Source of the DNA: Euglena gracilis
Lineage: Eukaryota
DNA: 64,000 bases
NCBI GenBank assembly: GCA_039621445.1
Contig: CP154954.1
Span: 2,542,001-2,606,000, forward strand
Direction: 5' to 3'
In this document: one piece after another, positions 5,654-26,450 of the stretch
Numbering within the stretch: the stretch's first letter is position 1
How the letters are laid out: every line of letters begins with the position of its first letter
The notes under the pieces: model-generated
Databases searched by the model: none
The model's input: the letters and a program-made list of their open reading frames with translations, nothing else
What the model was told of the DNA's origin: nothing
Position numbers and translations under genes: made by a program

Positions 5654-5690
5654 GTCAATATCCTCACCCGGGACAGATGGTGGGTTTGTA

Positions 5691-5746: not shown

Positions 5747-6074
5747 TGCCCCTCCGATGCTGCTGCTAGGGTAGGCTGTGTGCTGTCTCTCGCAGAAATG
5801 TAAGGCACCAGCACTTTTAATTGTTTGGCCGACGTTGGGTGGTTTCTTCCAGTCACCGGAGACGGAACCTTGGGGTTGTCCGGTTTATTTTGCTGAGGTG
5901 GGAAGGTTGCAGGCCAGTAGAATCCGGCAGAACTGGCTGGCTGGGGGGCCATTGTTGCAGACCAAAAAGTGGATGTGCTGTCTGGCTGGGGGGCCACTGT
6001 TTTAGTCCAAAATGTGGAGGAACATGGTTTGAGAGTTTGTCGGGGGCTTTTCAGGCTGAGAGCAAAAATGGTGT

Positions 6075-6890: not shown

Positions 6891-7173
6891 ATACAGCCAA
6901 CAGCAGCATGGTGAAGTTCTGCAGCAGCAAGACCAATAAGGGCTGAGAAGCCCAAGGACTTGGGTTCTTGAATGTCTTTCTCTGAGCTTGTACCTTTGAC
7001 TTCTGGTATTGTACTTGTACTTGACTTCTGCCTGCACCAGCAGGACTTCAACTTCTGCCTGCACCAGCAGGACTTCTTCTGCCTGCACCAGCAGGACTTG
7101 TGATCGATGATAGTTGAACTCTTGGCTTGGTTTGTCCCCACCAGGGGCTTTCAATTGTCCGCCATGTATTATG

Positions 7174-7199
7174 CGAAAAAAAATGGACACTCAGAAAGA
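7174..7199 (-). other. Spliced-leader (SL) exon copy at the 5' end of element D (2 mismatches)
   Basis: Minus strand TCTTTCTGAGTGTCCATTTTTTTTCG vs Euglena SL ACTTTCTGAGTGTCTATTTTTTTTCG; followed by CATAATACATG, not by a GT SL intron. Confidence 0.85.
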
Positions 7200-7344
7200 A
7201 ATTTTTGACGAAACAAAAAGAAATTTCTGACGAATTAGGAATACCCAGATTCGCGTTCCGAACTTTTTGAAATTTTCGAAAATTCGAATTTTTCGAATTT
7301 TTCAATTGAAATGAAAAATTCCCAAAATTTCGAAATTTGCCGAA

Positions 7345-8212
7345 CCTTGCGCGGATGTATCACTCCTGAACGAAGCCCAAAGCCCTCACATTCAAAGGAA
7401 GTGTTGGAGTGTGAATGCTTTGCGAAACAACGACAAAAGGTATTATCCTCCAGCCTTCACGGTCAAGACGCCGTCCGGTTCGCAAGCCAACAGCGCGCCC
7501 ACGCAATGGCCTGGGCTTCTGTCACACCATCCTCTGGACTGAAAATATTGGTCGCGTCTGCTGAATTCAAAGGATTTCTAAAGTGGTCACTGGGAGCACC
7601 AGTTTGTCCACCAACTGCACCAAGCCAATGGACAACCTGGGTAATCACCTTGTATGCTGCAGCTCAAATGGCATCACGCGGCGACATGGTGCAATCCAGG
7701 ACTTTGTGTTCCAACTGGCACATGATGCTGGGTTTACAGCAAAAAAAGAACAAGGAGGTCCAGAGAGAACACGCCCGGGCGATGTCCTCATCAGCAGACT
7801 TGACGCCAATGGTCCTGGAGCAGTGGATATCACAGTGAGACACACAGCAGCACCGTACAGACCGTTGCGTGACACAGCTGAACTGACTGAATGGTATGAA
7901 CGCCAAGAGAAGGAAAAACATTCAAAATATGACGCCACCTGTGGGAGGATGGGATAGACCTGCATTCCGTTTGTTGTTGACTGCTATGGCGGCCTAGGCC
8001 AAGAAGCGCTAACCTTAATGTCAACACTGATGAAACTTCTCCTCGGCCAACAAGATGCATGGTCAAAACGCAAAACTGAAGCCGACACATGGCAACTTCT
8101 ATCAATAACTGTTGCGCGAGAGATCGCGCGACAAGTAATCTGGGGACGGTATGCAGGGAACGACACAGATCCAGAAGTAACCAACACCATACACCAGCCG
8201 TATTGTCTGTAA
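7345..8212 (+). pseudogene. C-terminal zinc-knuckle + restriction-like endonuclease of a CRE-like element (probably the 3' half of D, opposite orientation)
   Basis: CTKPMDNLGNHLVCC, RRHGAIQD, RPGDVL, VDITV, KHSKY, PFVVDCYGGLG; contains a frameshift and a stop. Confidence 0.88.
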
Positions 8213-8458
8213 AGAAGACCACTACGTCCCCTACACCCAGAACAAACAATTGTTCTTAGACCATCCACAACTTGTCAAAAAAGTAAACAACGGTACCCAA
8301 CCATCAGTGACTCACATTGGCAAGAGAAGTGGCCCGCCAGCTGGCTTGAGGAACAGTGGCGGAGCCATTTGGAGCGGTGGATCCCACCACCCATTGCCCA
8401 TATGAAACGGAGTGAGCAATTTGACCACAGGGCCGAAGACGCCATGACACACCAACCG

Positions 8459-8822
8459 TACGGGGGGGTGGATCTGGCATCGGGGGGGGGGGTTGTGGGC
8501 CGACCCTAGGGTCGGCCCACGGTCGCCAAAGGTCGCCAAAGGTCGCCATGGTCGCCAAAGGTCGTGGGTGGGTTGATGTCAAAAAATGCGCTCCACGGCA
8601 AATTAGCGCAACTTACACACAAAAGGAGTTGCACACACAAGGGATTTTTTTTTTCAGGGCCCTGGAACAGTTGCCTACGCCGCTACATGGCAAAAAAAGA
8701 CTGAGTAGGAAATACCCATAGCGACCTTTGGCGACCTTTGGCGACCGTGGGCCGACCCTATGGTCGGCCCACAACCAACTCCCCCCCCCACCCCCAGGCC
8801 AGATCCGGGAGCCAACCGTACG
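8459..8822. mobile_element. MITE-like element with ~90-bp inverted arms and GGTCGCCAAA subrepeats
   Basis: 8459-8545 is the imperfect reverse complement of 8721-8822. Confidence 0.7.
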
Positions 8823-9117
8823 CATAACCAACCACAAGACTAATTAAACCAAAAAACAAGCAAATCACACCTTGCAACGATTGGACCAAGTCTACAAAGA
8901 CGTCCAAACCCTTACCTCACCGAAAACAGAGCCTTCCCTGCGCCAACTCCCCAAAACCTAAACTGGTCGCTGTCACAACCTCAACACTCAACAGTCCCCA
9001 TGGCCGTTCCATTGAACCTTCCCTGCCGCTATACACTTTCCTCTCACACTCGCTAACCCCCCTCCGTACTGTGCCCTTCACCGCCCTTCTTCACCCGCGA
9101 CTCTCCCCCGTCCCACC

Positions 9118-10745
9118 TTGAGAACTTGCTGTGTGCATTACTCTCACCCGCACAGGACTTCGGCTCGGAGTGAACCTCCTAGGCCGCACCTTGGTTTCTG
9201 GTTCGAGTACCTTCCGCCTCCAGTCCACTCCGTCACTTCCGCCCCTACCCCTACCTCACCTACCCCCTTCCCCCTTCGCCCCTACCCCAACTTCCAAGGC
9301 CAGGGGGACGCCCCTGTGCCTCCCATGTGTCAAGAGGCGCCCCATCCCGCCCGCCGCCCAGGGCCCCCTGAGGGGGACGCCCCCATTCCGAGATGCGCCC
9401 AACCTGTGAGCAGCAAAGGCAATGACCTGGGGGTGATGCCGCCAAGGCTCCCGCCCCCAGCGAGCCTGGGCGAGTCTCCCTGCTCCTCCCCCCGGAGGGC
9501 AGCCCCATCCCTCCAACGCCCCCGCAGCACCAGCAGGCTGGCCCACACGTCAACGGCGTTTGCGCTGGGCTATGATCCGCGGGAGACGCCACCAAGGATC
9601 TCTCCCTCGGTGAGCCCGGGCGGGCCTGTCCCTCCCCTTGGTGCTGCCGCAGTCTCCACTGCCGGCCTATCCTCCACCCCTTTCCCAAGATGCGCCCAAC
9701 CTGTGAGGACGAGCTGCCAACCCGCCCCATCGGCTGCTCCCCTTTCCAGCCCCGTCCCAACGTTCCATCCTCACATCCACAGCTGCAGCTTCGTGTGTCA
9801 ATTGTCACCATTTTACGACCAAGGGTCTTGGACACGTGACCTTTGTGAGGATGGAGATGTCGAGCCAAATCCAGGCCCAACTTCACCTCCAGATCCCGGG
9901 GCAGCTTTCTTGGCAATGAATCAAACGGCTGCTGTCATCAACCTGGCTCCTCTCCCACCGTCCGCCGCCTCCTCCGCCTCTGCACCGGCAAGACCAAATC
10001 CTCAAGCACGCAAGCGGAGGGCCGAGCGTGGTCCAGATTCCTCTGATTCTGAAGAAGAGGGCCCAGGCGTTTTCCATTGCCCGTTTCCCCACTGTTGCAA
10101 GTCCTTCCGACATGGCTTTCAAGGCTGGAATACAAAGCGGCTCGCCACAAATCATGTGGCCATGGTTCACGTTGCTGCTGGTGAAATTCCATCATCCGTG
10201 TGGCTCCAAGAAGCGCAACGCTGGGTTTGTGGCCATTGCCTAAGAATGCTGCCGGAGCGGAAAAGGTGTGTGGGGGAGAACTGCTTTCGTGTCAGAGCAG
10301 ACTCCACCCCAAGCCGCTTGCCACCACCGAGCCATCCTCCTGCAGTCCAGGCGGCCTCATCATCATCACGTAACCCCGCACCACCATGTTCCTCCTTGGA
10401 CTTACCAACTGCAGCCATGGCTACGGCGGTTCACGATATCCTGTCCCTCACCAGGCCTCTGTTTCGGCACATCCCGCGTGCAGCCATACCCTTGTGGGGC
10501 ATGGCATGGGCCAAGGTGCAACAGCGTCTCTGCTCCGAGCGCTCATGGGAGGCATTGCGAGATTGGGCCCTCTTTCAAAAAATCACACTGTGGTGCCCAC
10601 GGGGTGGCAAAGCACACAAGGGACAAGCTGCCCAGCTCATCCGCTCACGAGTCGAGCGTTTCAATGCAGGTGACCTTGCAGCTCTGTGGGACGAATATCG
10701 CCAGGGCATCCCGCCGCCGGACCGCAAGAAAAGAAAGAGCACATC
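9118..10745 (+). mobile_element. Element E: 5' part of a CRE-like retrotransposon (Pro-rich leader, 2A, two Zn fingers, pre-RT region), truncated by a TIR element
   Basis: WTRDLCEDGDVEPNPGP; FHCPFPHC..NHVAMVH and CGHC..C..C fingers; HIPRAA..W, FQKITL..RGG and R..RF.AGD..ALW motifs parallel the pre-RT regions of A, B and D. Confidence 0.8.
9829..9879 (+). other. 2A/StopGo peptide WTRDLCEDGDVEPNPGP (element E)
   Basis: Canonical D(V/I)ExNPGP motif, in frame. Confidence 0.9.
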
Positions 10746-10989
10746 GGAGACAAGGCACAGGGGGGGGGAGGGGGGGTCCGAGGGGGGTGGTTGGAAGCTG
10801 TACAGGGGGGGGGGGGGGGGGGGGGGGGCCCCGGAAAATCACAACTGTACTGCCCACCCCCGAGACAGTTGCGACATTTTTCGTCCAATTGAGGTTGGCA
10901 ATGATGGATTTTGCGAAATTCAGATGCATTTTGCAAAATATTTGTGTCTTGTAAAAAGAATGGTAGCCAGTGTTTTCACTTTAAACACT

Positions 10990-11177
10990 TACCCCCCCCT
11001 TTATTTGACCCCCCCCTTAATTGAGCATTTGGGTCCGGGGAAATTTTTTTTTTCATGCGCCGAAGGCGCCGAAAATTTTTTTTGCCCGCTTTCTAAAGGA
11101 GTTTTTGACCCCCCCCTTATTTGAGCATTTGGGGGGTCCGTTGGCCCGTGGGTGTGCTCAAATAAAGGGGGGGGGTA
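10990..11177. mobile_element. TA-flanked MITE
   Basis: TACCCCCCCCTTTATTTG...AAATAAAGGGGGGGGGTA; the paralogous copy near 13791 has an empty site with a single TA. Confidence 0.85.
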
Positions 11178-11931
11178 GCAGAAAGGCAGGAAGCAGCTTC
11201 AATCACTCCCCCTTGGCACACCATGCGGAATTGAGCCAGGGTTGACGTTTTTTTTGTTTTTCAACAAAGAACAAAATATGTTTTTTTTCAAAAAAACACA
11301 GAAAAACATGTTTTCTTTTTTTAAAAAAGCAAAAATTGACCTTTTTCCTTGCAAAATGGCCATTTTTTGAGGAAAAAGTTTTAAGGTCATTTTTTTGGTC
11401 ATCAAAAGTGACGTTTTTTAGTTTTTCCAGACACTTCATCGCACCCTTTACGGACTACGAAGCTGCAGAGATGAAAAAAGACCTTTTTTCTTAAAAAAAA
11501 GTTTCAAAAAAATTCCCCCAAACCCTTCATGAGTTTTTTTTGTTTTTTTTTAAAAAATATATTTTTCTTAGGGGGTGCCACCCCCGTGACCCCTCCCCCC
11601 CCGTTACATCCCCGTGACGTGACCCGAGAATTGATCCTCCGCCATTCTTTTTTTCAAAAGCATTTTTTTTAAAAACAATGAACTTTCATGTATCCTTGTC
11701 TGCCCAATGCACCTTCATACCCAAAAATGGCCAAAAATCTTTTCCCCTGAAAGAAGTGCCAAAAACTGGTGCATTTCCCCACCCAAAACGGAATTTTGTC
11801 AAAAATGGCCCAAACTTCATCCCAAAAACGTGTTGGTCAAGAAAATCCTAACACAATTCCCTTTCAAAATGACCAATTTTATCACGATGCAACGTCATGA
11901 ATGTTGCCTCCCGGCTACCTGCAAAGTGGCA

Positions 11932-12025
11932 TACCACCCCCCCCCCCCCATATTATCCCCCCTCCCATATTGTCCCTCGGCCCGGCCGACGAGGGGTTTT
12001 TTTGGCTCGGTCAATGAAATTTCCT
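11932..12025 (+). mobile_element. Left half of a ~175-bp TA MITE split by the inversion (right half at 14273-14348, reversed)
   Basis: The halves match the intact copy at 32867-33044; empty TA site in the paralog at 13063. Confidence 0.8.
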
Positions 12026-12265
12026 CCGCCCGCCCTCCCGCCCGCGCCAAGCAGGCCGCCTCACCCCTACCGTCAGCCACCCCAGCCGTCAGCCACTCCA
12101 GCCGTCCCTCTGCGCCTTATATTGAAGATGGGCCTTGCCCGTTTTCCTCCTGCCCTGCCCTGTATATACTTTTAACCTCCTCTGGACCTTCAAACCCAGT
12201 AGGCTGTGCCACTGGTCGGTGGATTCGGTTCGCCCCACCACCGCATCCCCACGTCTGGTTGAGCC
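12026..12265 (+). mobile_element. Displaced (inverted) distal 3' UTR of element A plus target-site copy GTTGAGCC (12258-12265)
   Basis: Homologous to the 3' UTR of element B (20830-21070, minus strand), including a near-identical 55-nt block. Confidence 0.8.
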
Positions 12266-12697
12266 AAGGCGCATTTGTGCAAGAGTGGCAGAGGACAAGT
12301 GGGGAGGAGCAGCTTTCCGCACAGCACCTGCGCAAATGGCTGTCCAAGGGGAGGGAACTGTGGTGAAGGCAGGAAGTGACGACCATAAACGTATCAACTG
12401 GCAGCCGAGCTCTTTGCTCAGCTCAACAACTTGCGTCCTCGTCGCAAGTGAGAGGGCGTCAGCGGCGATCCTTAACCTTCTCATGCTTTGCAGGCCTCGG
12501 GAATTTTTTTAGGGGGGGAAAATTATCAGACGGTTTTCCATTTCCAGATTTTGGGCCAAAATCAGGGGGGGGGGGAATTATCGACCGGGGAAAATTATCA
12601 GACACTTACAGTAACCCCCCCCCCCCCAATTTTCGCCCCCCCCCCCCGGGGGGGGGGCGACTATTGGGGGGGGGCGACAAATAGGGGGGTCACGTTA

Positions 12698-12799
12698 CCC
12701 ATACGCATTCTCCACCAAAAAACTCCCAGAAATCCTGGAGATCCTGCACATGCCTCCGCCGACTGCCGACCTCTTTGCCTCCGCCTCCAACTCCCATGG
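12698..12799 (+). pseudogene. N-terminal fragment of an N6-adenine-type methyltransferase, inferred to belong to element C
   Basis: YAFSTKKLPEILEILHMPPPTADLFASASNSH aligns with FMLDTEWFQAVVRALSPHNPPTIDAFADQNN of element A; joins the 2A of C across the TA site of a TIR element. Confidence 0.6.
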
Positions 12800-14465
12800 A
12801 GGACAAGGCAGTACAGTTGGTCAAACCTTGGGACCCCCCTCCCCCCCCCTGTACAGTTCCAACCCCCCCCTCCCGGGACCCCCCCCACTTCCAACCCCCC
12901 CGAGACAGATGAAAAAAAATAAAAAAACCGGCTTGTTTTTTGGAAACAAAAAAAACATGCGGTTTTAAGGGGGTGGTGGCGGGTGGGGGGGGGGGGGGGT
13001 CATGGGGGGGTCACGGGGCGGGGGGGGGGGTCACGGGGGAAGTATGCCACTTTGCAGGTAGCCGGGAGGCAACATCCATGACGTTGCATCGTGATAAAAT
13101 TGGTCATTTTTTGAAAGGGAATTTCGTTAGGATTTTCTTGACCAACACGTTTTTGGGACGAAGTTTGGGCCATTTTTGACAAAATTCCGTTTTGGGTGGG
13201 GAAATGCACCAGTTTTTGGCACTTCTTTCAGGGAAAAATATTTTTGGCCATTTTTGGGAATGAAGGTGCATTGGGCGGACAAGGATACATGAAAATTCAT
13301 TGTTTTTTTTTAAAAAAAATGCTTTTAAAAAAAGAATGGCGAAGGATCGATTCTCGGGTCATGTGGGGGGTTACGGGGTGTAACGGGGGGGGGTCACCCC
13401 CTAAGAATTTTTTTTAAAAAAAACAAAAAAAACCAATGGAGGGTTTGGGGGAATTTTTTTTAAACTTTTTTTTAGAAAAAAGGTCTTTTTTCATCTCTAC
13501 AGCTTCGTAGTCTGTAAAGGGTGCTGGATGAAGTGTCTGGAAAAACTAAAAAAACGTCACGTTTGATGACCAAAAAAAAATGACCCTAAAACTTTTTCCT
13601 CAAAAAAATGGCCATTTCGCAAGGAAACAGGTCAATTTTTGCTTTTTTAAAAAAGAAAACAGGTTTTTTTTGTGTTTTTTTTGAAAAAAAAAAAACATAT
13701 TTTTAGTTCTTTGTTGAAAAACAAAAAAACGTCAACCCTGGCTCAATTCCGCATGGTGTGCCAAGGCGGAGCTGCTTCTTGCCTTTCTGCTAAGTGTTTA
13801 AAGTGAAAACACTGGCTACCATTCTTTTTACAAGAGACAAAATTTTCGCAAAATGCATCTGAATTTCGCAAAATCCATCATTGCCAACCTCAATTGGACG
13901 AAAAATGTCGCAACTGTCTCGGGGGTAGGCAGTACAGTTGTGATTTTCTGGGGACCCCCCTCCCCCCCCCTGTACAGCTTCCAACCCCCCCCTCGGACCC
14001 CCCCACTCCCCCCCCTGTGCCTTGTCTCCATGGGGACAAGGCAGTACAGTTGGTCAAACCTTGGGACCCCCCCTCCCCCCCTGTACAGTTCCAACCCCCC
14101 CCTTCCTGGACCCCCCCCTCCCCCCCCACTTCCAACCCCCCCGAGACAGATGAAAAAAATTAAAAAAAAATGTTTTTTTTAAAAAAAAAAAAACATGTTT
14201 TTTTAAGGGGGTGGGGCGGTTTGGGGGGGTTCATGTGGGGGTCACGGGGCGGGGGGGGGGTCACGGGGGAAGTACCCCCCCCCCCCATATTGTCCCACCG
14301 ACCTCTCCCGACGGGACAATATGGGGGGGGGGGACAATATGGGGGTACGTGTTGGTGTGCGTGTGTGCGTGTGTGGGTGTGGGTGTGTGTGCGTGTGTGG
14401 GTGTGGGTGTGTGGTTGTGTTGTGTGTGTGTGTGGTTTTTTTTTTTGGCATACCTCCTCCCGTGG

Positions 14466-17400
14466 TTAACGGAGGACGTGCTTGGGTTGTAAGAGGTGGA
14501 ACACTTCTCGGAGCAAGGCGATGGCCACATTTTGGTAGATTTCCGCTTGCTTGGTTTCGCGCTCAGCGCCCTGTTGCCAGGACGATGCGCGTTTGGCCAC
14601 TCTGCTCAGTGTCTTGGCCGTTTCCGGTCCCATGCCACCCCATGTCCCGAGGGCGAAAGGTGTGAAGCCCCAACCTGCTTGCTGACATGGCACGTTGTAT
14701 TTCTGCTTTTTGGCGTCCTCCCTCCTCTTCAGGAAGGATCTCCAGCGTTCGCGCGTCGCTGTGTGTTCTGCCGCTTGCCATCCGTGGCAGACGGTGACGT
14801 CCAGCGCCGTCGGCTTCCCCTCGGACCAGCAGTCCAGCAGGAGGTCCGCCGGGCGTAGGTGACTGTCTCGGGCCGTTGGCAGGGAAACTTCCTTCTGCAC
14901 CCGGTGACCGCTGTTGGACAAGGTTTGAAACAGAGCGTCCTGAACAGCGTTGTGCCGGGCTGAGAAGTTGTTCCTGCGGCAGCAAAGCAGGTGGTCGCCT
15001 TCCTGGTCCAGAGGCTGGCCGCACCCTGTGCACGGCTGGCTGACGTCCACCAGCACCGGAAGCCCTAACCACCACTTCAGTCCCAAGGTGTACTCCTCGC
15101 TAGAGAAGGTGGTGTGGGAGTTGTTGGAGGGGGTGGCCGCCATCCACCCGTGTCCGAACCCCGTGGCTTGTTCAAGGAGGCGGTTCTGGTCGCGAGGCCG
15201 GGCCTGGTCCACAAGGCCGCCCATCGCCTTTTTGCCCAGCTCGTGGTTCCACCACTTTTGCCTCCGGGGTTCTTGGTCCGCGGAGGCGAGTCGTTGTGGG
15301 TCTGTGAGGAAGGTGGTGACCGTGGCATGGTTGGCTCCTAGCCTGCCCCGGAGGTCGTCCAGGACGGGCGCGACCAGGGGTAGCTGCAGGCCGGATGCGT
15401 AGTCGGGCACACCCACGCGCCTGGCCCCGTCTGAGTAGAAGTCTGCAAGACAGGAGATCCTGGCTGCGGGCTGAGTGCAGGACGGGACGCGGAGGCCGCA
15501 GCCCCCGCTGGATAGGGGCAGCGACGCTTGGGTCTGCTGTTGTGGGTTCAGTGCCGTGCCCAGTATGTCCTCGAAGGCGTTCATGATGACCTCCGAGCAG
15601 CCTGTAATCTGATCTTGGCTGCCATACGAGTCGGACGCGCGTAGGAGGTGGTTCACTTTGCAGCCGTCTAGGCAGCTCCGCAGAAGGTGATGTGCCACCT
15701 GGGCGTCGGTGAGGGACGTTATGGTAGATGAGGCCTTCTCGATCTTGGGCAGCATCCGCCCACGCTTTCTTAGTGGTGTCGGAGGACGCGGGGTGGTCTA
15801 CTGGGATTCCGAGCACGGTAATGCCTTCCCCTGGTGACCAAGGGACCACTTGCAATCTGTCGCAACTGGGTGCACTCCGCGCTCCCGGGCCCCACATGAC
15901 GCACTTCTGCAGGTTGAGGCGAGGCCGATGCGGTGGGACTCTTGCAGCAGGAAACGGAGGCAGTGTTCAATCCTGTCGGGGGTTCCGACCAGGAGGCCGT
16001 CGTCCAGGTACCAGCTGTTCCATAGCAGCTGGCCGTCCCTGGTTATCTGGTCCAGCAGCGGCTGCAGCGCCAGGGCGAACCCGATGGGGCCCAGAGGGCA
16101 GCCCTGGTGTGTGCCCCTCTGGGAAAGGATGGTGCGGCCCCCGCAGAAGAGGGGGACGGGCCCGCTGTATGCAAACCTCAGGAAATTGAACAGACTGGGT
16201 GTACGGGTCTCGGCCTCTGTGAGGATCGCCCCTCGGTCAACTGTGTTGAAAGCATTGGAGTAGTCCACCTGGAGGGAAACCCAGGGTGAGGTGTCCCCCA
16301 GCTGAAGCACGAGGTGCTGCATGCCCAGGGCAACGGCCTCGGCGGCGTTCCGTACCCCAACCCCGACCTGGGTGGGGGCGAGCGTTGCAACCTCCGACCG
16401 GGCATGTGGTGTCTGGAGCAGTGTTTTCCCTACCAGGCGGCGGATGGTCTCCCCAACCGCCACTGGCCGCACCCCGTTGTCCTTCTTGCGGAGTGGGGTC
16501 AGATTCGCGCAGCACCAGGCCGCGGCGTGGTGCGGGGGTAGTAGCTGGCCGTCAATCCAGAACTGGGTCAGCCGCGCAAGGGCTGTGATCAGCTTGGCTC
16601 CTCGGCCCGGCCTACGAAGACAGTCTTGGAGGTGGCTGGGCCGCAGGCCCGACGGGCCTGCGGCGGAACCCCGTGGGAAACGGCGGATGGCCTCCTTCAG
16701 TCTGTCCTCCCATTCCGGGATGTGGTTCTCAGGGAAGGGCTTAACATGTCGCGGGAGGCGGTTGGTGTCCACCTGTCTGCCGCTTGGGTGCAACTTCTCC
16801 AGGGCAGCCCAGACATCCGGATCATCCGGTTGGTGCGCGCCCTCAGAGAGCAGTAGCTGGACTGCCTTCGCAGACGCCCCTCTTCAGCGGTGAGGGTGCG
16901 CACACCCGTCTCGTGATGGCCTCACTGAGGGCGGTCGGCTGCGTTCTGGAGCGCTTTTCCGCCCTGGTTTCCACGACGGAGTGTCGAGCCTGTGCGTCTT
17001 TATTGCCTCTGTCAGAAGGGTGCCGTAGTCCCCCTCGCGGAACAGTTTGGTACGCCTCAGCAGGATGGACTCCAGCTCCGCTGCCGGCGGTGGTTTGGTA
17101 GTCGACACCGGTCGGAGGACGAGTTTCGGGAAGGATAGGACGCTGAATAGAGCAGCGTCCGAGGGTGCGTGCGTGTATGCGTTGATGGCATCTGCCAAAG
17201 TGTCAAAGACAGGTTGCTGGAAGGCCGAGGGCAGGTGAATAAGGGTCGAGATTCTTTGTTGGAGGACGTGGGTGATGTCGCAAGGGGGAGTGCCCACGAC
17301 CAGATTGTGTGCGGGCCGTCCCCGGAGGTTGGACTCCTGCCCCGCGCTGTCGATAACTACCGCGCGGCGTCAAGTTCCGGGAGCCAGGTCCAGAAAGAGG

Positions 17401-17468
17401 TGGTCGTGGTCCCGGGCATCCGCAGCAGCCGGTGCGCCATGAGGTGGCCCGGAGGCCGGGCGCTTGGC
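14466..17468 (-). pseudogene. RT-RLE protein of element A (several frameshifts)
   Basis: ORF pieces 16884-17297, 15798-16793 and 14466-15755; GPSG, RPVAVGE, VDYSNAFN, QGCP, YLDD (15999-16010), CTGC..HLLCC, RHN, RPAD, DVT, KKQKY. Confidence 0.92.
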
Positions 17469-17522
17469 TGGCCCAGGGTTCTCCTCCACATCTCCACAGG
17501 TGAGGAGGCTACCCCGTCCGCG
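17469..17522 (-). other. 2A peptide RGRGSLLTCGDVEENPGP preceding RT-RLE (element A)
   Basis: 17/18 residues identical to Thosea asigna virus T2A (EGRGSLLTCGDVEENPGP). Confidence 0.95.
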
Positions 17523-17821
17523 GTTTGCCCCCCGTATGCAAGGACTGCCCCGCGGCGGACAACGATGGCCGTTTTTTGGCAGTGAGTCGGCTACCGCTGC
17601 CGGATCCAGGGGGGCCCGTGGCCCGTCGAGGAGGGAGTGAGGGGTGGGGGTCAAAAGCCGGGCGTAAGAGCGGTGGTCTAGGGGCGGCAAACTGAAGAGG
17701 GAGCAGCGTGGGGCAGTCCCAAGGCCATTGCCACAGGCCGCAGCGAAGGCACCAGCAGGGGGTCTGACCGCGGATGTCCCACGGGGCGTTCCGGTGGAAT
17801 AGGAATGTCCGGCCTGCTGCA

Positions 17822-17995
17822 TACCACCCCCCCCCTTTATTGTCCCACCGACCCCCACGGGCGGCCCTTACAATAAGGGGGGGGACAAGAAAGGGGTACC
17901 AAAGGAATTTCATTGGCCGGGCCAAAAAAACCCCCCGTCGGCCGGGGCCCAGGGACAATCAAGGGAGGGGGACAATAAAGGGGGCGGGGGTGCTA
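17822..17995 (-). mobile_element. TA-flanked MITE inserted into the Cys-rich cargo domain of element A
   Basis: Related to 32867-33044; removing it restores the frame ...FRLGD-Y-AAGRTF... Confidence 0.85.
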
Positions 17996-18189
17996 GTCCC
18001 CTAGGCGGAAGACTTCGCCGCCATGAGTGGAGCGGCGTTCTATGATAAGGCGTTGTTGGCCAAGGGAGAGGAGCGGTGCAAGGGGGTAAGGGGAGTGCGC
18101 GTGGCGCGAGAAGTGCCGTCCGTGGTCAGCGCCCCGGTGGGGACCCGGGGGGCCGGGCGCCGCATGGGCTGCCGCTGCCGGTGTGGCAA

Positions 18190-18585
18190 ATCCGTAGGGC
18201 TGTGGTCGACCATGGGGGCCGGCAGCAGCGCTGTCCCCCGGGCCCGGTAGATGGGGCATCGCGGTAAGGTCACGGAAAGCGAGGAGAGGCGCCGCAGGCC
18301 GGCCAGCGCGGTGGACCACTCCGGTGCGAGGAGGATGATGTTGCCCCCAAATCGAAGGACGTGTTCCAAAACACGGGGGAGCAGGGAGAAGGGTGGGTTG
18401 CACCACAGCGGGTTTGGCAAGTTCCAATTCTGGAGGAATGCATCCTCCCTTGATGACCAGAAGGCGTCCAGTTGGGTGTTATTTTGGTCGGCGAAAGCGT
18501 CGATGGTGGGCGGGTTATGGGGGGACAGAGCCCGTACCACCGCCTGGAACCACTCGGTGTCCAGCATGAAGTCTTCGCGTGGTGC
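18190..18585 (-). CDS. Phage Dam/DIRS-like DNA N6-adenine (amino) methyltransferase domain, 2A-delimited
   Basis: PTIDAFADQNN (SAM-binding), DAFLQNW, LWCNPPFS (NPPF at 18388-18399), IILLAPEW; put in frame with the upstream 2A by adding one base to a 7-G run. Confidence 0.85.
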
Positions 18586-18623
18586 GAGGGGGGGAGAACG
18601 GATGAAGCCCGGCCGGAGCTCGT

Positions 18624-18677
18624 GGGGCCGGGGTTGCTCTCCACATCTCCCGCAGTGAGGATGTCTGCGCCCCTGCC
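18624..18677 (-). other. 2A peptide GRGADILTAGDVESNPGP (element A, before the methyltransferase)
   Basis: Canonical DVExNPGP. Confidence 0.9.
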
Positions 18678-18919
18678 GCTCCGAGGCCGCGGGGGAGCTA
18701 ACAGGCGGCGGCAGCCGGCGGCCTGGCGGCGAAGTGTGGAGGTGATGAGGCGCCCACGCGGGGCTCCCTGTGAGTCTCTGGGGGGGGAAGCACGTGGACG
18801 TGGAGTGGAGGTGAGGCCCCGGGGGGTGCCGGTGCCGGGCTGCTGGGCCCAAGAGCGGACGCTCCCCGTCTGGGACGCGTGGAGTCATCGTCGTCGGCAT
18901 CGTCATCCTCCGGGTCGCT

Positions 18920-19372
18920 ATCGACGTCAGAGAGAGACGGTGGTTGGCAGATCTGCATGTGGGCAACTATGGGCGCTGGGTAGGGGGTCGCAGTCGACCA
19001 TCCGCACATTTGGCAGTGTACCAGCCACCACTCGCCGTTTGGGAGGGACTCCAAGTGCTGTAGCCTCCAGCGCCACGAGTCTTCTCTTATGGAGGGGAGA
19101 GAGAAAATGTTTCCCATGGGCCTACCCGCCTGGCATTGATGGGACTGCATGCCTTGGAGGGACGACAGGTTGACGTGCTGAGAGCACAAGAGGCATCTCG
19201 CAAATTCGGACCCTGCCGACGCGAGGTGTGCTGCCGTCCCCGACGACGAGGGGCCGGCGGTTGCCGGGGTGAGCAGACGTAGCCACCGCCAGTGTTGGCC
19301 AGTCCAGTAGATCTCCTCCCAGACGTCGTCGGGCGCCAGGGGGGGGGATGGGCTCGCCGGTCCCCCCGGGCG
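18920..19372 (-). CDS. 2A-released module with two Trp-rich CxxC..H..C zinc fingers (BED-like), element A
   Basis: VWEEIYW..FARCLLC..MQSHQC and WRW..WLVHCQMC..IVAHMQIC, then an acidic tail; conserved in B. Confidence 0.65.
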
Positions 19373-19430
19373 AGGCCCCGGGTTCTCCTCGATATCGCCG
19401 CAGCAGAGGATATCCCTGTGGCAGAGCTGC
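19373..19430 (-). other. 2A peptide QLCHRDILCCGDIEENPGP (element A, first)
   Basis: Canonical DIExNPGP. Confidence 0.9.
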
Positions 19431-20751
19431 CTCGAGAGGCCGGGGCGACTGTGACCGTCGGCGTGATGCCACCCCATCGTATGCCCGTGGCGCCGGCCCC
19501 CCCCGAGGGGCGGTAGCCGGCCGCCCTCCCCCCCCCCTTCTTGGGGCTGCGCGCAGGGGGGATACAGGAGCAGCTGGACGTCGTCGTCCGCTAGGTCAGA
19601 CCAGGTGCGACCGGGGGGGGGGGGGGGCAGGGGGGAAGTGGTGGTGATATGGATTCCCTCCAGCCAGTGGTCCACGAGGACTTTTTTGTATTTTTTCTGG
19701 ACCCGGTCCATTCCCCCCAGATGGAGGCGTCCGTCGAAGACAGCACAGACCAATCGTCTGCTGCTGAAATCGAGTTTGTCGGCAGGTTGGCCGGGGCTCT
19801 GGAACTGGCTGCTAAGGTGTGCTCCTTTTTTTGTGCAGCCCTTTTTTGATCCACCAGGTCGGTGACCATTTTCTTTTCCTCAGTGGACCTTGTCCTGAGT
19901 TTTTCCAAAATCCTCTGGATTTGGGGTGTTGTGGTGCATTTTTGGGGGGGGGGCCTTGGCCCAGTCCTGGGTGTGACTTCAAAAACTTCTGCCCCCCCCT
20001 CTTCCACTCCCCCCCCCTTCGATTTGGCAGGGCACAAATGAAGGAGATGGTGGGAGGAAGGGTCCAGAGGGTCCAGCTGCCATTAAGAGCGGGGCATCGG
20101 TAGCAATGGACATGTGGCTGCCATTTGAATTTAAATTTAAATTTAAATTTGGAACATTTCCAAGCAGCATCCACATGATTTGTAGCAGCAGCTGTCGCAG
20201 CAGGTCGGTGGGGAGCTGCAGCCCTTGGTTGGCTGTTGCACTGGCTGTCATGGTGGGGGTGTTCCCCACAGGGCCCCCCAGGAGGCTGCCCATCTGGGCC
20301 CCCATTTGGCTGCCCATTTGCCCCATTTGGGGCTGCAGCTGTTGCTGCTGTTGCTGCTGTGGCTGCTGTTGTGGCTGGGCAGTCCTTCCAGGCTTCCCCT
20401 GGGGATTTAAAAGTGTGTGGTGTGTGTGGTGTGTGTGTGTGTGTGTTGTAGCCAGGGGGGCGGTAAGGGCTGCTCAGGCTGGTGTCGGAGGTGGCGGGGG
20501 ATGTAGCGGCTCTGGTGCTTTTTTTTGAGGAACTCCTCGTAGGCTTCGTCTTCTTGTCGTCTCCTTTTTCCCGGTCGTCCTTCCTCCACCTTGTCGGCCA
20601 GCTCTTCCACTTTGCTTGCTAATACCACCATATTTTGAGCCACCAGGCTCACTTGCTCCAGCACCGAATTCAATTTTTTGTTGAGGATGACGTTGTCCAG
20701 CGGCACTTCCAGCACGGCTGGCGGGTCTTCTGGGGCCGCGGCCCCCGACAT
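19431..20751 (-). pseudogene. ORF1-like N-terminal region of element A (coiled-coil, Q/QMG-rich), frameshifted
   Basis: ATG 18 nt after the SL (GCCATG); heptad-like LNSVLEQVSLVAQNMVVLASKVEELADKVEE; QMGSQMG and LPTDLLRQLLLQ shared with B. Confidence 0.6.
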
Positions 20752-20769
20752 GGCGGTTTATGCGGAGAT

Positions 20770-20795
20770 CGAAAAAAAATAGACACTCAGAAAGT
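20770..20795 (-). other. Exact spliced-leader exon at the 5' end of element A
   Basis: ACTTTCTGAGTGTCTATTTTTTTTCG, 26/26 to the Euglena SL as I recall it. Confidence 0.92.
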
Positions 20796-21109
20796 GGCTC
20801 AACTTTTTTTTTTCGGACACAGAGTGATTCACTCACGGTGGTGGGGCGAACCGAATCCACCGACCAGTGGCGCAGCCTACTGGATTTGAATGTTCGAGGG
20901 TGCGGGGATATAGACAACGCTGGAGTGTGGGTCAGTTCACAGCAGGGGCAAAGGGCGGCGGGAGGAAAATGGGCGAGGCCCACCTTCAATATGTTGCGCG
21001 GGGGAAGAGAGGAGCGGAGGTGTGCGGCGGAACAGGAGTACGTGCGGGGGAGGAGGGGTGAGCGGCAGGGCAGTACGCGGCTCGGTGAGGTGTGCTGTGG
21101 TGGGCGTGG

Positions 21110-21145
<36 letters not shown>

Positions 21146-21183
21146 CTGTGCGTTCGTTTTCTTCCGTCTCTCTGTTTTTTTTT

Positions 21184-24182
21184 TTATCGGAGAATGTGCT
21201 TGGGTTGAAGGAGGTGGAAGACTTCGCGTAGCAGGGCGATTGCAACGTTCTGGTAGATCTCTGCCTCCTTTGTTTGACGTTCCGCTCCCTGTTGCCAGGA
21301 GGAGGCGCGTTTCGCCGCCCTGCTCAGGGTTTTGGCCGTCTCAGGTCCCATGCCCCCCCACGTCCCGAGGGCGAAGGGCGTGAAGCCCCAGCCTGCTTGC
21401 TGGCATGGGATGTTGTACTTTTGCTTTTTGGCCTCCTCCCGTCTCTTCAGGAAAGATCTCCACCGTTCGCGGGTGGCCGTGTGTTCCGTCGCCTGCCATC
21501 CGTGGCAGACGGTGACGTCCAGTGCCGTCGGTCTCCCGTCAGACCAACAGTCCAGGAGGAGGTCAGCCGGGCGGAGGTGGTTATCTCGTGCCGTTGGCAG
21601 GGCAACCTCCTTTTGCACCCGCTGTCCGCTGTTAGACAAGGTTTGGAAAACCGCGTCTTGCACAGCGTTGTGGCGGGCGGCGAAGTTGTTCCTGCGACAG
21701 CAGAGGAGGTGGTCTCCCTCCTTGTCCAGGGGCTGGTTGCATCCCGTGCATGGTTGGCTGACATCGCTTAATACCGGGAGGCCCAGCCACCACTTCAGCC
21801 CCAAGGTGTACTCTTCGCTGGAGAAAGTGGTGTGGGAGTTATTTGAGGGGGGTGCCGCCATCCAACCGTGTCCGATACCTGTAGCCTGTTCCAGGAGGCG
21901 GTTTTGGTCCCGCGGTCTGGCGTGGTCCACTAGATCATCCATGGTCTTCTTGCCCAGCTCGTGACTCCACCACTTCTGCTTCCGGGGCTCTGAGTCCGCG
22001 GAAGCGATGCGTTGAGGGTTGTTGAGGAAGGTGGTGACGGTGGCGTGATTGGCCCCTAGCCGGCCCCTGAGGTCGTCCAAGACAGGCGTGATGAGGGAGA
22101 GCTGTGGGGAGGTTGCGTATCCAGGAACACCGACACGTCGTGCCCCATCAGAGTAGAAATCTGCAAGGCAGGAAATCCTGGCCGCCGGCTGTATGAAAGA
22201 TGGGACGCGGAGGCCGCAGCCGCCACTCGACCAGGGCAGGGAAGCCTGGGCCCGCTGTTGTGTGTTGAGAGCCGTGCCCAGTACGTCCTCAAAGGCGTTC
22301 AAGATCACCTCAGAGCAGCTTCTCACCTGGTCCTGGCTGCCATACGAGTTAGAGGCACGCAGCAGGTGGTTTACCTTGCAGCCATCCAGACAGCTTCGGA
22401 GCAGGTGATGTGCTACCTGAGCGTCGGTGACGGACGTGATGGTGGATGAAGCCTTCTCAATTTTGGCGGCGGCAATCTCCCACGCAGTTTGTGTGGTGTC
22501 CGTAGAGGCTGGATGGTCGATTGGGATACCCAGGACGGTGATGCCCTCCCCTGGGGTCCAGGGGACCACTTTCATCCTCTCACAGCTCGGCATACTCCTG
22601 GCTCCCGGGCCCCACAAGACGCACTTCTGCAGGTTCAGGCCGAGCCCCACTCGATGGGACTCTTGCTGCAGGAAACGTATGCAGTGCTCAATCCGGTCTG
22701 GGGTCCCGACCAGCAGGCCGTCGTCCAGGTACCAGCTGTTCCACAGCAACTGGCCATCTTTGGTGATCTGTTCCAATAGAGGCTGTAGCGCAAGTGCGAA
22801 CCCTATAGGGCCCAAAGGGCAGCCTTGGTGTGTGCCCCTTTGTGATAGGATGGAGCGACCACCACAGAACAAGGGAACGTGCCCGCTGTACGCAAATCTC
22901 AGGAAATTGAACAAGCTGGGGGTGCGCGTTTAGGCCCCGTTAGGATCGCCCCGCGGTCCACCGTATTGAACGCATTGGAGTAGTCCACCTGGAGAGAAAC
23001 CCAGGGCGATGTGTCCCCCAGCTGGGTGACCAGGTGTTGCATCCCCAATGCGACGGCCTCAGCTGCGTTTCGTACCCCAACCCCAACCTGGGTAGGGGCG
23101 AGGGCGGCAACCTCGGATCTGGCGTTTGGTGTCTGGAGCAGGGCTTTCCCCACCAAGCGGCGGATGGTTTCCCCAACCGCAACCGGTCGTACCCCGTTAT
23201 CCTTTTTGCGGAGGGGTGTCAGATTCGCACAGCACCAGGCGGCGGCGTGGTGGGGCGGTAGCTGGCCGTCCACCCAGGCTTGTGTCAGGAGAGCGAGGGC
23301 AGTGACCAGCCTTGCTCCCCGGCCTGGTCTCCGCAGGCAGTCTTGGAGGTGGCTCGGTCGCAAACCAGATGGCCCCGGCGCCGACCCCCGCGGGAAGCGT
23401 CGAATGGCTTCCCTCAGTCTGTCCTCCCAGTCAGGGGTGTGGTTCTCGGGAAATGGGCGGACGTGACGCGGCAGGCGGTTGGTGTCAACGTTCCTGCCGA
23501 TAGGGTGTAGCTTTTCCAGGGCGGCCCAGACCTCTGGGTCGTCAGGTTGGTGCGCCCCCTCGGACAGCAGAATCTGGACAGCCTTGGCCGAGGCCCCCTC
23601 CGCAGTGAGGGTGCGTATGCGTCTATTCATTGCTTCACTGAGGGTGGTGGGCTGTGTCCTGGAGCGTTTTTCCGCCCTGGTTTCAACAATGGAGTGTCGT
23701 GTCTGGGTGTCCTTCTGGGCCTCTGCCAGCAGGGTGGCATAGTCCCCTTCGCGGAAGAGCCTGGCACGTCTCAGCAAGATGGACTCCATTTCTGCAGGTG
23801 GCGGTGGTTTGGTTGTTGACGCGGGGCGTAGGACAAATTTGGGGAAGGAGAGCACGGCGAACAGCGCCGCGTCCGATGGTGCGCGTACGTAGGCCGTGAT
23901 GGCGTCTGCCATGGTGTCGAAGACATATTGTTGGCAGGCGGAGGGTAGGTGGATGAGGGTCGGAATTCTCTGTTGGAGAACGTGGGTGATGTCGCAGGGG
24001 GGAGCCCCAATCACCAGGCTATGCCCAGGCTGCCCTCGGAGATTGGATTCCTGGCCTGCGCTGTCGATGATCATTGCCGCGTCGCGATCCGGGTGAGCGA
24101 GGTCCAGGAAAAGGTTGTCATGCTCCCTGGCGTCTGTTTCGGTTGGCGCGCCACGAGGGGATGTTGGTGCCGGGCGCTTGGC
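21184..24182 (-). CDS. RT-RLE protein of element B (one frameshift near 22930, possibly a sequencing error)
   Basis: ORFs 22899..25364 and 21184..22914; YLDD at 22720-22731; complete RLE motifs; closely similar to A. Confidence 0.92.
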
Positions 24183-24236
24183 TGGTCCCGGGTTCTCCTC
24201 CACATCCCCGCAAGTGAGAAGGCTACCCCGTCCGCG
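24183..24236 (-). other. 2A peptide RGRGSLLTCGDVEENPGP (element B)
   Basis: Same peptide as in A but with many synonymous codon differences. Confidence 0.95.
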
Positions 24237-24539
24237 GGTAGCCCCCAAAGTGTGGGCACCGCCCAGCGTCGGGCTACAACGGTCGTTTTTTGGAGTGGGG
24301 TGGGCCGGTGCTGATTTAGCACGTGGTGTTTGTACAGCGTGTAGGAGGGGGCGCGGGATGGTAAGGATGGCATCGCCCCTGCCAGTGGATGTATGGGGCG
24401 AGATAGGAAATGGACGGTCGACGGGGGTGGGCGCTGGTGCTGGGCTTCCGGAGTCTGCAACGGTGAAGTTCCTTTGGTCGTGTTCCGAGTCACCGTGCAT
24501 GTCATCATCTCCGTCGTGTTCAGCGTCCCTTTCCGAGTC

Positions 24540-24989
24540 GCTCTCCAAGTCCGAGAGGGACGGCGGTAGACAAATTTGCATGTGGCTCAGTAGGGGCGCC
24601 GGGTAAGGGGTTTCGGTCGACCACCCACACACCTTGCAGCGCACCAGCCACCACTCGCCATTTGGAAGGGACTCCAGGTGTTGTAAATTCCAGCGCCAAT
24701 AATCTTCCCGGACTGTGGTGAGGGAAAAAATGTTACCGAACGGCCTACCTGCCTGGCAGTGATGAGACTGCATATCCCAGAGGGACGACAGGTTGATGTG
24801 CTGAAAGCACAGGCGGCATCTCGCAAATTCCGTCCCTGGGCCGGTCTGGGAGGGGGTCCCGAAGGATGGACCTGCTGTAGCTGGGGTGCGCAGCCGTAGC
24901 CACCTCCAGCGCTGGCCATTCCAATACAGCTCATCCCAGACGTCGTCTGGTGTCAGGGGGGCTGATTGGCTTGCTGGGCCCCCTGAGGG
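24540..24989 (-). CDS. 2A-released tandem BED-like zinc-finger module, element B
   Basis: FARCRLC..MQSHHC and LVRCKVC..LLSHMQIC, in an uninterrupted frame between two 2As. Confidence 0.65.
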
Positions 24990-25046
24990 CGGGCCCGGGT
25001 TTTCTTCGATATCCCCACAGCGTAGGATATCCCTGCGACAATTTTG
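24990..25046 (-). other. 2A peptide QNCRRDILRCGDIEENPGP (element B, first)
   Basis: Canonical DIExNPGP. Confidence 0.9.
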
Positions 25047-25964
25047 CCTTTGGTTCTTGAGCCACAGGGGCTCTGGCTGCAGTGGACCGCCAGTCCTGTG
25101 GGTGCCCACTGTGCGCCAGGTTCCCCACGTTCCGATGGGGAGAAGCCAAAAGGCTCCAGCCACTTGCTGTGTTTCCAGTGTGGACCTAGTCCTCGTTTTC
25201 CCCAAGATTTGGAGTTTTGTGGTGCAATTTTCTGGGGGGGGGGGTGTTGTCTTTTTTGGGACCTCCAATTTCTCCTTTCCCCCCCCCCCCCGCCTCCCGC
25301 CTTTGGCTTGGGCAGAGTATTGGGCAGGGCACAAGGGGAAGAAAATGTTGGGAGCAAGGTCCAATGGTTCCAGCTGGGGGGGCCAATGGTAGTGGGGCAG
25401 CTTGCAACAGCAGCTGTCGCAGCATGTCGGTGGGGAGCTGCTGCCCTTGATGGTTGTTGGCTTTTGCCCTGGTGCTCATGGGGGGGGTGTTCCCCACTGG
25501 GCTGCCCATCTGGGTCCCCATTTGGCTGCCCATTTGTGGCCCCATTTGTCTGCCCATTTGTGGCCCCATTTGGGCCAGCAGCTGTTGCTGCTGTTGTTGC
25601 TGGGCAGTCCTTCCAGGCATCCCCTGGGAAAGTAAAAGTGTGTGGTGTGTGTGGTGTGTGTGTGTGTGTGTGTGTGTGTTGTAGCCAGGGGTGGGGTAAG
25701 GGCTGCTCAGGCTGCTGCTGCTGCCACGATGCCAAACACATGTCGTACTGCTCAAAGGGCTCAGAAGCCCACTTCACTGTGGTCGTGTTCTGGACCTTCA
25801 CTCCACCTTGGACTCGACTTGGACGTCCACTTGTTCTTGGACTTAACCCCTTGTACTTGATACCAGTACTTGTGACCAACAAGTGGGTATGCTGCTCGCA
25901 GTTGTCCTTCGTATTGAGCTTCGGACCCCACTCGGGGCTTTCAAGCCATGAGCACGTGTGGAGA

Positions 25965-25990
25965 CGAAAAAAAATAGACACTCAGAAAGT
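25965..25990 (-). other. Exact spliced-leader exon at the 5' end of element B
   Basis: 26/26 identical to the copy at 20770-20795. Confidence 0.92.
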
Positions 25991-25998
25991 GGCTCAAC

Positions 25999-26450
25999 TG
26001 CTTTTTTCCTTTGATTAGATTCAAACTGCTTTCGCTTTGCTTTCGCAGCAGGATCTGCCCAGTGTTGTCCGTGATGTGCACTCGGTTTCGATAATCTTGC
26101 AACACAAGTGCAACAAAACCTGCATCGTGCAGGCTATATTTGCCCTTGTTGCGTTGCTCGATATGACGCTTGCCAGGTGCTGTCCCACGGGACTTCCCAC
26201 GGGCCATTAGTGATTCCTTCACGGGCATGAGAAAATCTGTCAAATGAAAAACCGGTCGATAATTTTCCCCCCCCCTGGTTTTGGGCTCCGTGGGGGGGGG
26301 AAATTATCAGACACTTATAGTAACCATGGACCCATGGAAATGTGGGGTGAATTGAGTAGCCCCCCCCTAATTGTCACTTTCCCCCTAATAGTCGCCAAGG
26401 GGGTCAAAACGCTCCCAGGGGGGTGCCATATAGGGGGGGGGGTCACGTTA
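25999..26450. mobile_element. Right part of a TA-flanked TIR DNA element (terminus GGGGGGTCACGTTA) that received A and B; other part at 12266-12697
   Basis: AAATTATCAGACACTTA..GTAACC and GGGGGGTCACGTTA are shared by 12590-12697 and 26300-26450. Confidence 0.7.

Follow-up and report, generated by a model that had tools for sequence, protein, structure and literature searches.

Retrotransposons headed by DNA copies of the host spliced leader in Euglena gracilis

How does a retrotransposon come to begin, to the base, with the spliced leader (SL) of its host, and how are copies that begin in this way expressed again? The question is posed by a stretch of 64,000 nucleotides (nt) of Euglena gracilis DNA (NCBI GenBank assembly GCA_039621445.1, contig CP154954.1, positions 2,542,001 to 2,606,000 of the forward strand; henceforth the window). 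In it three retrotransposons, here termed E1, E2 and E3, each start with a DNA copy of the 26-nt SL that host mRNAs acquire by trans-splicing. We find that these copies lie outside SL RNA genes and that two of them directly adjoin the putative 3' end of an element; tentatively, we favour the reading that the elements home to the SL and carry it as the head of the transposed unit.

SL copies and their junctions

A search with the 24-nt core of the SL, allowing up to three mismatches, gave three matches in the window, none of them on the plus strand: 7174-7197 has one mismatch, and 20770-20793 and 25965-25988 have none. The same search of 100 shuffled sequences gave a mean of 0.00 matches and a maximum of 0; the three SL copies are real and chance is excluded. 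The full 26-mer is exact at 20770-20795 and 25965-25990, the copy at 7174-7199 differs from it at SL positions 1 and 15, and no further copy is present in the window at up to six mismatches. The 26-mer is identical to the SL printed for E. gracilis in PMC6242988 and to the SL primer given in PMC5654406.

7174..7199, minus strand: SL copy 1, changed at positions 1 and 15; heads E1
20770..20795, minus strand: SL copy 2, exact 26-mer; heads E2
25965..25990, minus strand: SL copy 3, exact 26-mer; heads E3
7199 down to about 3362, minus strand: E1 as a whole
20795 to about 14363, minus strand: E2 as a whole
25990 down to about 20796, minus strand: E3 as a whole

Since the SL copies lie on the minus strand, the elements run toward lower coordinates. 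Downstream of each SL comes an element leader and then long open reading frames (ORFs) with a reverse transcriptase (RT) match; thus a retrotransposon starts at each of the three SL copies, and the SL gives way to the leader right after its nt 26. The next bases are CA in copy 1, AT in copy 2 and TC in copy 3, and never the GT of an SL intron. The first-pass annotation had proposed both that retrotransposons begin at these three SL copies and that the intron GT is missing, and the matches, the RT ORFs and the bases at the junctions bear it out.

True SL RNA genes look different. A scan of metagenome contigs with the 26-mer recovered five SL copies on four contigs (L001-L004), all of them true SL RNA genes: in all five, GTATA.. 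and an Sm-like site come after the SL and sequence ending in ..TAC comes before it, and on three of the four contigs the same strand carries a 5S rRNA gene about 100 nt before the SL. The corresponding scan of viral contigs gave no match and that of genome contigs a single one, L005, an SL without intron. We rejected L005 as a relative of E1-E3: it has only the SL plus 4 nt in common with E2 and shows no RT similarity. In the window, Rfam at the gathering score detects no family, 5S rRNA and SL RNA included; at relaxed thresholds around the junctions it returns nothing relevant, and no tRNA, hepatitis delta virus-like ribozyme or other RNA family lies at or near them. What precedes the SLs of the window is the tail of another element or a dispersed repeat. 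Hence, with no 5S gene, SL intron or SL-gene flank in the window, E1-E3 are not ordinary insertions into SL genes.

Downstream of the SL, the first 5-8 nt are common to E2 (ATCTCC) and E3 (TCTCC), beyond which the two leaders cannot be aligned for about 250-290 nt. E1 and E3, which belong to separate families, have in common a 19-nt motif, TTGAAAGCCCC..GTGGGG, about 20 nt past the SL (17 of 19 positions identical, p about 0.002; in E1 at 7136-7154, minus strand). Judged from these comparisons, the 5' untranslated regions (UTRs) are mosaics with conserved pieces rather than simply different. The earlier claim that each SL is fused to a different 5' UTR therefore stands for most of the leader sequence and falls for the opening bases of E2 and E3 and for the E1/E3 motif. 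In the segments 25926-25964 (E3) and 7136-7173 (E1), both on the minus strand, there is also a short upstream ORF (uORF; ATG plus one or three codons) whose TGA lies inside the TTGAAAGCCCC motif; in another frame the conserved bases encode a similar peptide, ESP.WG, in both elements.

We tried and rejected the SL RNA intron as a source of the leaders: only one of nine comparisons, E3 against L003, gave a match (25913-25927, minus strand; 14 of 15 nt identical, nominal p 0.002 among nine comparisons), the other eight were not significant, and MAFFT left the sequences unaligned. The matching segment lies 37 nt from the SL in E3 and 43 nt from it in the L003 intron; the similarity could be fortuitous or a remnant of descent from SL RNA. 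Among the contigs from the SL scans, the 5S-SL units of L001 and L004 (782 bp in L004) hold TTAGGG-like telomere repeats in the spacer, and degenerate TAGGGG-like repeats stand just upstream of the intron-less SL of L005.

Upstream, one and the same octamer, GTTGAGCC, stands immediately before each of the two exact SLs, itself following an A-rich run; the octamer occurs only four times in the window.

20804..21183, minus strand: 3' region of E3, comprising A12, (CA)n, a segment of ~280 nt termed U, and A10 at 20804-20813
20836-20890 and 20961-20992, minus strand: core of segment U in E3
20796..20803, minus strand: octamer GTTGAGCC, with the A10 run immediately before it and SL copy 2 immediately after; candidate 3' end of the E3 family
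25991..25998, minus strand: second GTTGAGCC, directly upstream of SL copy 3, with an A-rich stretch before it
25999..26037, minus strand: 39 nt before the octamer of SL copy 3, up to where one contig of run X20 stops matching
12119..12265, plus strand: second copy of the U core (12119-12150 and 12189-12243), 91-96% identical

From its position and recurrence, the sequence from U to GTTGAGCC is apparently the 3' end of the E3 family. The second U copy is 5'-truncated, with no SL before it, and an octamer lies 14 nt past it (12258-12265, plus strand) with non-SL sequence next; the octamer therefore behaves as an element terminus. This putative terminus adjoins SL position 1 in two of three contexts, namely between E3 and E2 and between a fragment of at most 48 nt and E3. 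E3 is flanked on both sides by identical octamer-plus-SL sequence (34 of 34 nt), and with a putative E3-family terminus before both exact SLs it lies between two SLs, head to tail with E2. The 25999..26037 segment, whose boundary at 26038 rests on the single X20 contig, could be what is left of a 5'-truncated E3-like element, a very short tail; tblastx of the region upstream of E3 returned low-complexity noise only. The SL of E1 is preceded by a high-copy AT-rich repeat, and a 21-nt tandem duplication there takes in the first 8 nt of the SL. Downstream of none of the three SL copies in the window is there a truncated relict SL. The base pair before the junction of SL and TCTCC is CG rather than AG, so a daughter copy could not regain an SL there by trans-splicing.

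The arrangement recurs in public sequencing runs. Of 24 listed runs, 19 (from 16 studies) contain half or more of the words sampled from 20400-26100, and the structure is therefore not an artefact of one assembly. For four runs we compared contigs with 6900-26400; the contigs are short unitigs, 20-30 letters long on the shorter side of a joint, which show adjacency rather than whole structures, and the joints given here are the best supported, 223 more joints and 2523 loose ends being present. In at least five of the joints an SL plus E1-like leader comes after the last 20-30 nt of U, at a distance of 0-38 nt (joints from 20796, 7182, 7183, 7199 and 7201, each to 20830-20835); one was found in runs X3 and X4 and another in X3 and X14. 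Among the joints listed, E1-like leaders are joined to canonical SLs; in another contig the repeat upstream of E1 adjoins a canonical SL (joint 20794 to 7221), and one contig has a partial SL directly upstream of a full one. On the strength of these contigs, tail-to-SL adjacency is recurrent and not peculiar to this locus. None of the listed runs is recorded as RNA; run X20, taken to be RNA only by guess, has near-zero depth on the bodies of E2 and E3 and was not used as evidence.

Proteins and anatomy of E1, E2 and E3

All three elements match Pfam RVT_1 above its curated cut-off (E1 44.4 bits, E2 38.3, E3 34.1), and the E3 RT has YLDD. The RT-containing ORF of E3 has 127 relatives in the protein collection, mostly metagenomic. 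In an alignment of 20 of these relatives the CCHC and the RPxD, D and K columns are invariant (in E3 C394, C397, H407, C411, R453, P454, D456, D471 and K501). E2 matches over the region of the CCHC and the restriction-like endonuclease (RLE), no endonuclease part was found in E1, and the apurinic/apyrimidinic (AP)-type endonuclease (Exo_endo_phos) has no match in any ORF scanned. The AlphaFold model of the E3 RT-endonuclease protein (pLDDT, the predicted local distance difference test, 89.2) finds R2 proteins as its seven best fold matches in the PDB, with E-values of 3.7e-12 to 6.2e-9 over ~630 aligned columns, followed by LINE-1 ORF2p at 2.8e-5; by sequence, a phmmer search of E3 against the PDB finds no R2 match. 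Because of the invariant columns, the R2 fold and the unmatched AP endonuclease, we assign the elements to the R2-like retrotransposons without long terminal repeats (non-LTR) that carry a C-terminal CCHC followed by an RLE of the PD-(D/E)xK type, an assignment that reaches this group as a whole rather than one clade within it (CRE, NeSL, R2, R4 or HERO). We dropped 14 related loci in genome contigs, which come from one mislabelled metagenome-assembled genome, are 22-34% identical and are not euglenid.

25718..25964, minus strand: E3 leader, starting TCTCC, with a short ATG..TGA uORF and TTGAAAGCCCC..GTGGGG at 25926-25944
21184..25717, minus strand: E3 coding region, with a Q-rich ORF1-like part, 2A-like motifs, a zinc-finger-like motif, RT, CCHC and RLE
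21697-21750, minus strand: E3 CCHC, with the RLE alongside
14363..20769, minus strand: E2 past its SL, with its own leader, three 2A-like motifs, a Dam-like NPPF module, RT, RLE and a miniature inverted-repeat transposable element (MITE)
3362..7173, minus strand: E1 past its SL, a different, decayed family with internal tandem repeats; RT at 3362-5071
24990-25013 and 24183-24206, minus strand: 2A-like motifs of E3
19373-19396, 18624-18647 and 17469-17492, minus strand: 2A-like motifs of E2
26465-26488, minus strand: 2A-like motif in a fragment upstream of E3
9856-9879, plus strand: 2A-like motif in ORF 9016-11124, which has neither a Pfam match nor an SL at its start

The window holds seven 2A-like motifs of the form GD[VI]E.NPGP in retrotransposon ORFs, two of them in E3 and three in E2. 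Residues 409-430 of the E3 ORF, with a 2A motif inside, match two unrelated PDB chains, probably through 2A tags left over in them. Upstream of the RT, one CxxC..H..C motif is kept between E3 (24570-24638) and E2 (18947-19015); a second such motif is seen by eye in E3, and Pfam zinc-finger profiles match none even at an E-value of 5. A homologue search with the 5' ORF of E3 (342 residues) came back empty, and the N-terminal ORFs have no Pfam match to an Ulp1-like or other protease family.

E3 is nearly intact, with one clear frameshift near 22899-22929. E2 is ~79% identical to it (25717/20484 to 21090/14363), has in-frame stops in both RT and RLE as well as private indels, and halts at the A12-(CA)n of its 3' end without U. 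Its own leader of 286 nt includes a 113-codon ORF (ATG at 20749-20751), whose first 90 residues find no match among 1.84 billion representatives; there is no sign of a captured host gene. The 3' end of E1 could not be identified in the window. An RLE fragment at 7583-8125 (plus strand) is a 5'-truncated piece with no SL before it, and in its 3' region an insertion of ~360 bp with inverted ends (8451-8812) is skipped by contigs of three runs.

E2 also has a module that E3 does not (17996-18623, minus strand, core about 18381-18510), set between two 2A-like motifs. It matches the Dam-like N6-adenine methyltransferase family PF05869 at 29.6 bits (cut-off 28.1) and has the NPPF motif; a DNA methyltransferase cistron within an R2-like retrotransposon is unusual. 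A MITE-like repeat of ~75-170 bp, with C-rich and G-rich inverted ends around ATATTGTCCC and apparently flanked by TA, is inserted in E2 and elsewhere. Contigs of all four compared runs skip it in E2 (joint 17817 to 17994), so there are other E2-like copies without it. In the interval from the plus-strand U copy to the E2 tail, two segments (12794-13044, plus strand, and 14028-14274, minus strand) form an inverted duplication with ~85% identity, and the 3' flank of E2 is thus rearranged repeat sequence. A (CA)n microsatellite occurs twice in both E2 and E3, once within the 5' ORF, where it encodes His-Thr repeats, and once behind the A12 at the stop codon. Elsewhere in the window are a tandem array with a unit of ~163 bp (62417-63836, at least eight copies) and a low-complexity tract rich in T and GT (37854-38263).

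17822-17990 (inside E2), 14273-14348, 11938-12021 and 32874-33044: MITE-like copies
25645-25679 (E3) and 20420-20446 (E2): (CA)n in the leader/ORF1 part
21090-21140 (E3) and 14363-14430 (E2): (CA)n at the 3' end

Accounts of the encoded SL

Any account has to cover both the exact SL start of full-length copies and the frequency with which element tails stop at an SL or just short of it. The account toward which we lean, with a confidence that stops short of even, is that these are SL-homing elements like CRE/SLACS/CZAR and NeSL, with a unit that begins with an encoded SL. The transposed unit of these euglenid elements would begin with a genome-encoded copy of the host SL. These would be the first 26 nt of the element RNA, transcription presumably starting at SL position 1, and the message would resemble a mature trans-spliced mRNA. 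The DNA copy would at the same time be a landing mark recognised by the integration machinery, an incoming E3-family terminus GTTGAGCC being joined to SL position 1 of a resident copy; repeated insertions would build head-to-tail arrays in the order tail, SL-element, tail, SL-element. The logic would be that of the SL-gene-specific CRE1/SLACS/CZAR and NeSL-1 and of R2 in 28S rDNA: exact joining is guided there by target sequence that the RNA carries at its ends. In the window the copies would be ectopic, an SL-bearing copy having seeded them at sites away from the 5S-SL gene arrays, and hypothetical master copies behind SL RNA gene promoters would supply RNA headed by a full SL.

Several observations lend themselves to this account. 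According to PMC4640811, target specificity prevails in four of the five RLE clades, the junctions being precise at the 3' end and variable at the 5' end, and PMC12278014 describes insertion of the CRE clade in SL RNA genes. SL-directed integration would account for the octamer-to-SL joints and for the SL on both sides of E3. E2 and E3 are ~21% apart, yet both retain the junction of SL and TCTCC, where the preceding CG would not let trans-splicing restore a lost SL. The SL at the head of all three elements and the tail-to-SL joints of the public contigs, including that of the E1 upstream repeat with a canonical SL, point the same way.

Other observations weigh against SL homing or blunt its support. 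The class assignment halts above the clade level, the window shows no insertion into a real SL gene, and the plus-strand octamer past the second U copy does not lead into an SL. In two contig joints, 23-34 nt of unrelated spacer separate the U end from the SL. Contiguity is all that ties U to E3: E2, a member of the same family, ends without it, and a U-like motif in the 3' UTR of the plus-strand RLE fragment was not significant (p 0.07), with the reverse-complement control doing equally well. The 39 nt upstream of the octamer before E3 show no significant likeness to the E3 tail (p 0.2), and no SL precedes them. No second SL is found on the 3' side of E1 or E2, both of whose 3' ends are decayed or rearranged. 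The order X-SL-E3-SL-E2 is equally predicted by an SL duplicated as target and by one borne on the RNA.

An extension of the homing account, which we regard as unlikely though coherent, combines both roles: an SL encoded at position 1 gives trans-spliced-looking messages without trans-splicing, the same 26 bases are the homing site, and an upstream tail or the SL-gene promoter of a master drives the start at SL position 1. If true, a self-propagating array of such SL cassettes would answer how promoter-less daughters get expressed again.

The best-surviving alternative, possible yet on our weighing rather doubtful, is that a trans-spliced element RNA was reverse-transcribed to its 5' end, arrays arising when the RT jumped from the SL-capped end to the 3' end of another RNA; the last template would then be copied only briefly before target joining. 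End-to-end template jumping is known for the R2 RT in vitro. Copying of trans-spliced RNA agrees with the complete SL exactly at the element start in all three copies, with flanks that differ from SL-gene sequence and with truncated pieces (12119-12265; 7583-8125) that have no preceding SL; even the wrong first base of the E1 SL is expected if copying near a modified cap is imprecise. Jumping, for its part, agrees with octamer-to-SL junctions free of extra bases and with an array that opens with a piece no longer than 48 nt, itself not preceded by an SL. However, the CG before the junction means that daughters are not re-spliceable there, and the SL-headed starts of E1, E2 and E3 would need long-lived SL-less masters in each lineage, of which none was seen. 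Relict truncated SLs downstream of a full SL, as in dinoflagellate recycling, are absent. Template jumping would have to be frequent in vivo to cover two of the three SLs here and several contig joints, and the stops and private indels of E2 against a nearly intact E3 fit separate events better. The window alone cannot separate SL homing from the copying of trans-spliced RNA; given the target-specific type of endonuclease and the octamer-to-SL junctions, SL-directed integration is at least as likely as passive copying.

A further alternative, which we consider improbable and which can coexist with SL homing, treats the SL as an inherited functional module: SL and leader would serve as an internal promoter or as a cap or translation mimic, or the 3' region of the upstream member would drive the start at position 1 of the next SL. 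The SL and the first leader bases are indeed kept across diverged copies while the remaining leader is replaced, and the recurrent spacing of 0-38 nt from U to SL would set a promoter in the 3' UTR at a fixed short distance. A precedent for an internal promoter is the Pr77 at the 5' end of trypanosomatid retroposons, which binds TBP and SNAP50 according to PMC8190864. Against such a module, the SLs of E1 and of other copies decay like neutral DNA, and E3's own SL has no U before it.

Two accounts hardly survive. Ordinary CRE/NeSL-style insertion into the SL RNA genes of the 5S-SL repeat, a habit of this element type in kinetoplastids and nematodes (PMC12278014, PMC4640811), is most improbable: the first-pass annotation had pointed to SL RNA/5S repeat flanks as what would undo its reading, and for all three copies Rfam is empty and the GTATA../..TAC/5S context of real genes is absent. 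An artefact, cDNA or chimeric reads having been assembled into poly(A)-SL joints, would explain why an A run followed by a nearby SL resembles concatenated cDNAs, and is scarcely tenable with the region present in most of the listed runs, with related but different tail-SL joints in contigs of three runs (DNA by guess), and with decayed E1 and E2, MITE insertions and flanking repeats, which are features of genomic DNA.

Related systems and significance

Kinetoplastids and nematodes have SL-associated retrotransposons that lie inside SL RNA genes; we regard those described here as a variant of this CRE/NeSL theme. CRE elements insert at one fixed site, the step from SL nt 11 to nt 12, and give long target duplications; we know of neither 2A peptides nor a GTTGAGCC terminus in them. 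In the window, by contrast, the SL is intact to nt 26 and no SL-gene flank is seen. CRE1, CRE2, SLACS and CZAR of trypanosomatids are likewise non-LTR elements with RT and RLE; they have one or two zinc fingers and are tied to the SL (PMC12278014). Their hosts are a sister lineage within Euglenozoa, and in both groups SL sequence stands directly 5' of the element; here, unlike in CRE, it is the full 26-nt SL, intron and 5S gene are absent, and the copies form dispersed head-to-tail arrays. NeSL-1 of nematodes and the NeSL/Utopia elements are of the RLE type, specific for small-RNA genes including SL exons, and have N-terminal zinc fingers and junctions that are exact on the 3' side and vary on the 5' side (PMC4640811). 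NeSL carries an N-terminal Ulp1-like protease, to which E1-E3 show no Pfam match, and its copies sit in SL1/5S repeats whereas E1-E3 lie outside SL genes. Animal R2 supplies the best structural matches to the RT-endonuclease half of E3. R2 joins precisely by way of target sequence at its RNA ends; its target is 28S rDNA, and unlike E2 and E3 it has neither SL nor 2A peptides.

A DNA-encoded, intron-less SL at the 5' end of a retrocopy is taken to betray a reverse-transcribed trans-spliced mRNA in the SL-tagged retrogenes of dinoflagellates (PMC3942190, PMC6050394, PMC12014239). E1-E3 bear exactly such an SL. The dinoflagellate retrogenes are host genes with truncated relict SLs downstream, whereas here retrotransposons are tagged and the relict is absent. 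L1Tc/ingi of trypanosomes are euglenozoan non-LTR elements with a 2A self-cleaving peptide. They solve the promoter problem with the conserved 5' Pr77, which binds SL-gene factors according to PMC8190864 and PMC1874656. They differ from E1-E3 in their AP-type endonuclease, the lack of a 5' SL and unspliced transcripts. HeT-A and TART at Drosophila telomeres form head-to-tail arrays in which the upstream 3' end serves the downstream copy, HeT-A having a 3' promoter; they attach to chromosome ends and have neither an endonuclease of the RLE type nor an SL.

In the literature we found nothing on SL-associated retrotransposons in euglenids, and a term search of E. gracilis genome papers, supplements aside, gave no mention of them. 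The 2A peptides of these R2-like elements are of interest for the history of 2A, and SL copies encoded in genomic DNA will lead astray any mapping of 5' ends and any gene models in Euglena that rely on the SL. Should the SL be both the head of the RNA and the landing mark, Euglenozoa would have in SL homing a strategy that is old or recurrent. The elements would then offer a natural example of mobile DNA that mimics a mature trans-spliced mRNA, and a genome larger than 2 Gb would owe part of its repeat load to this strategy.

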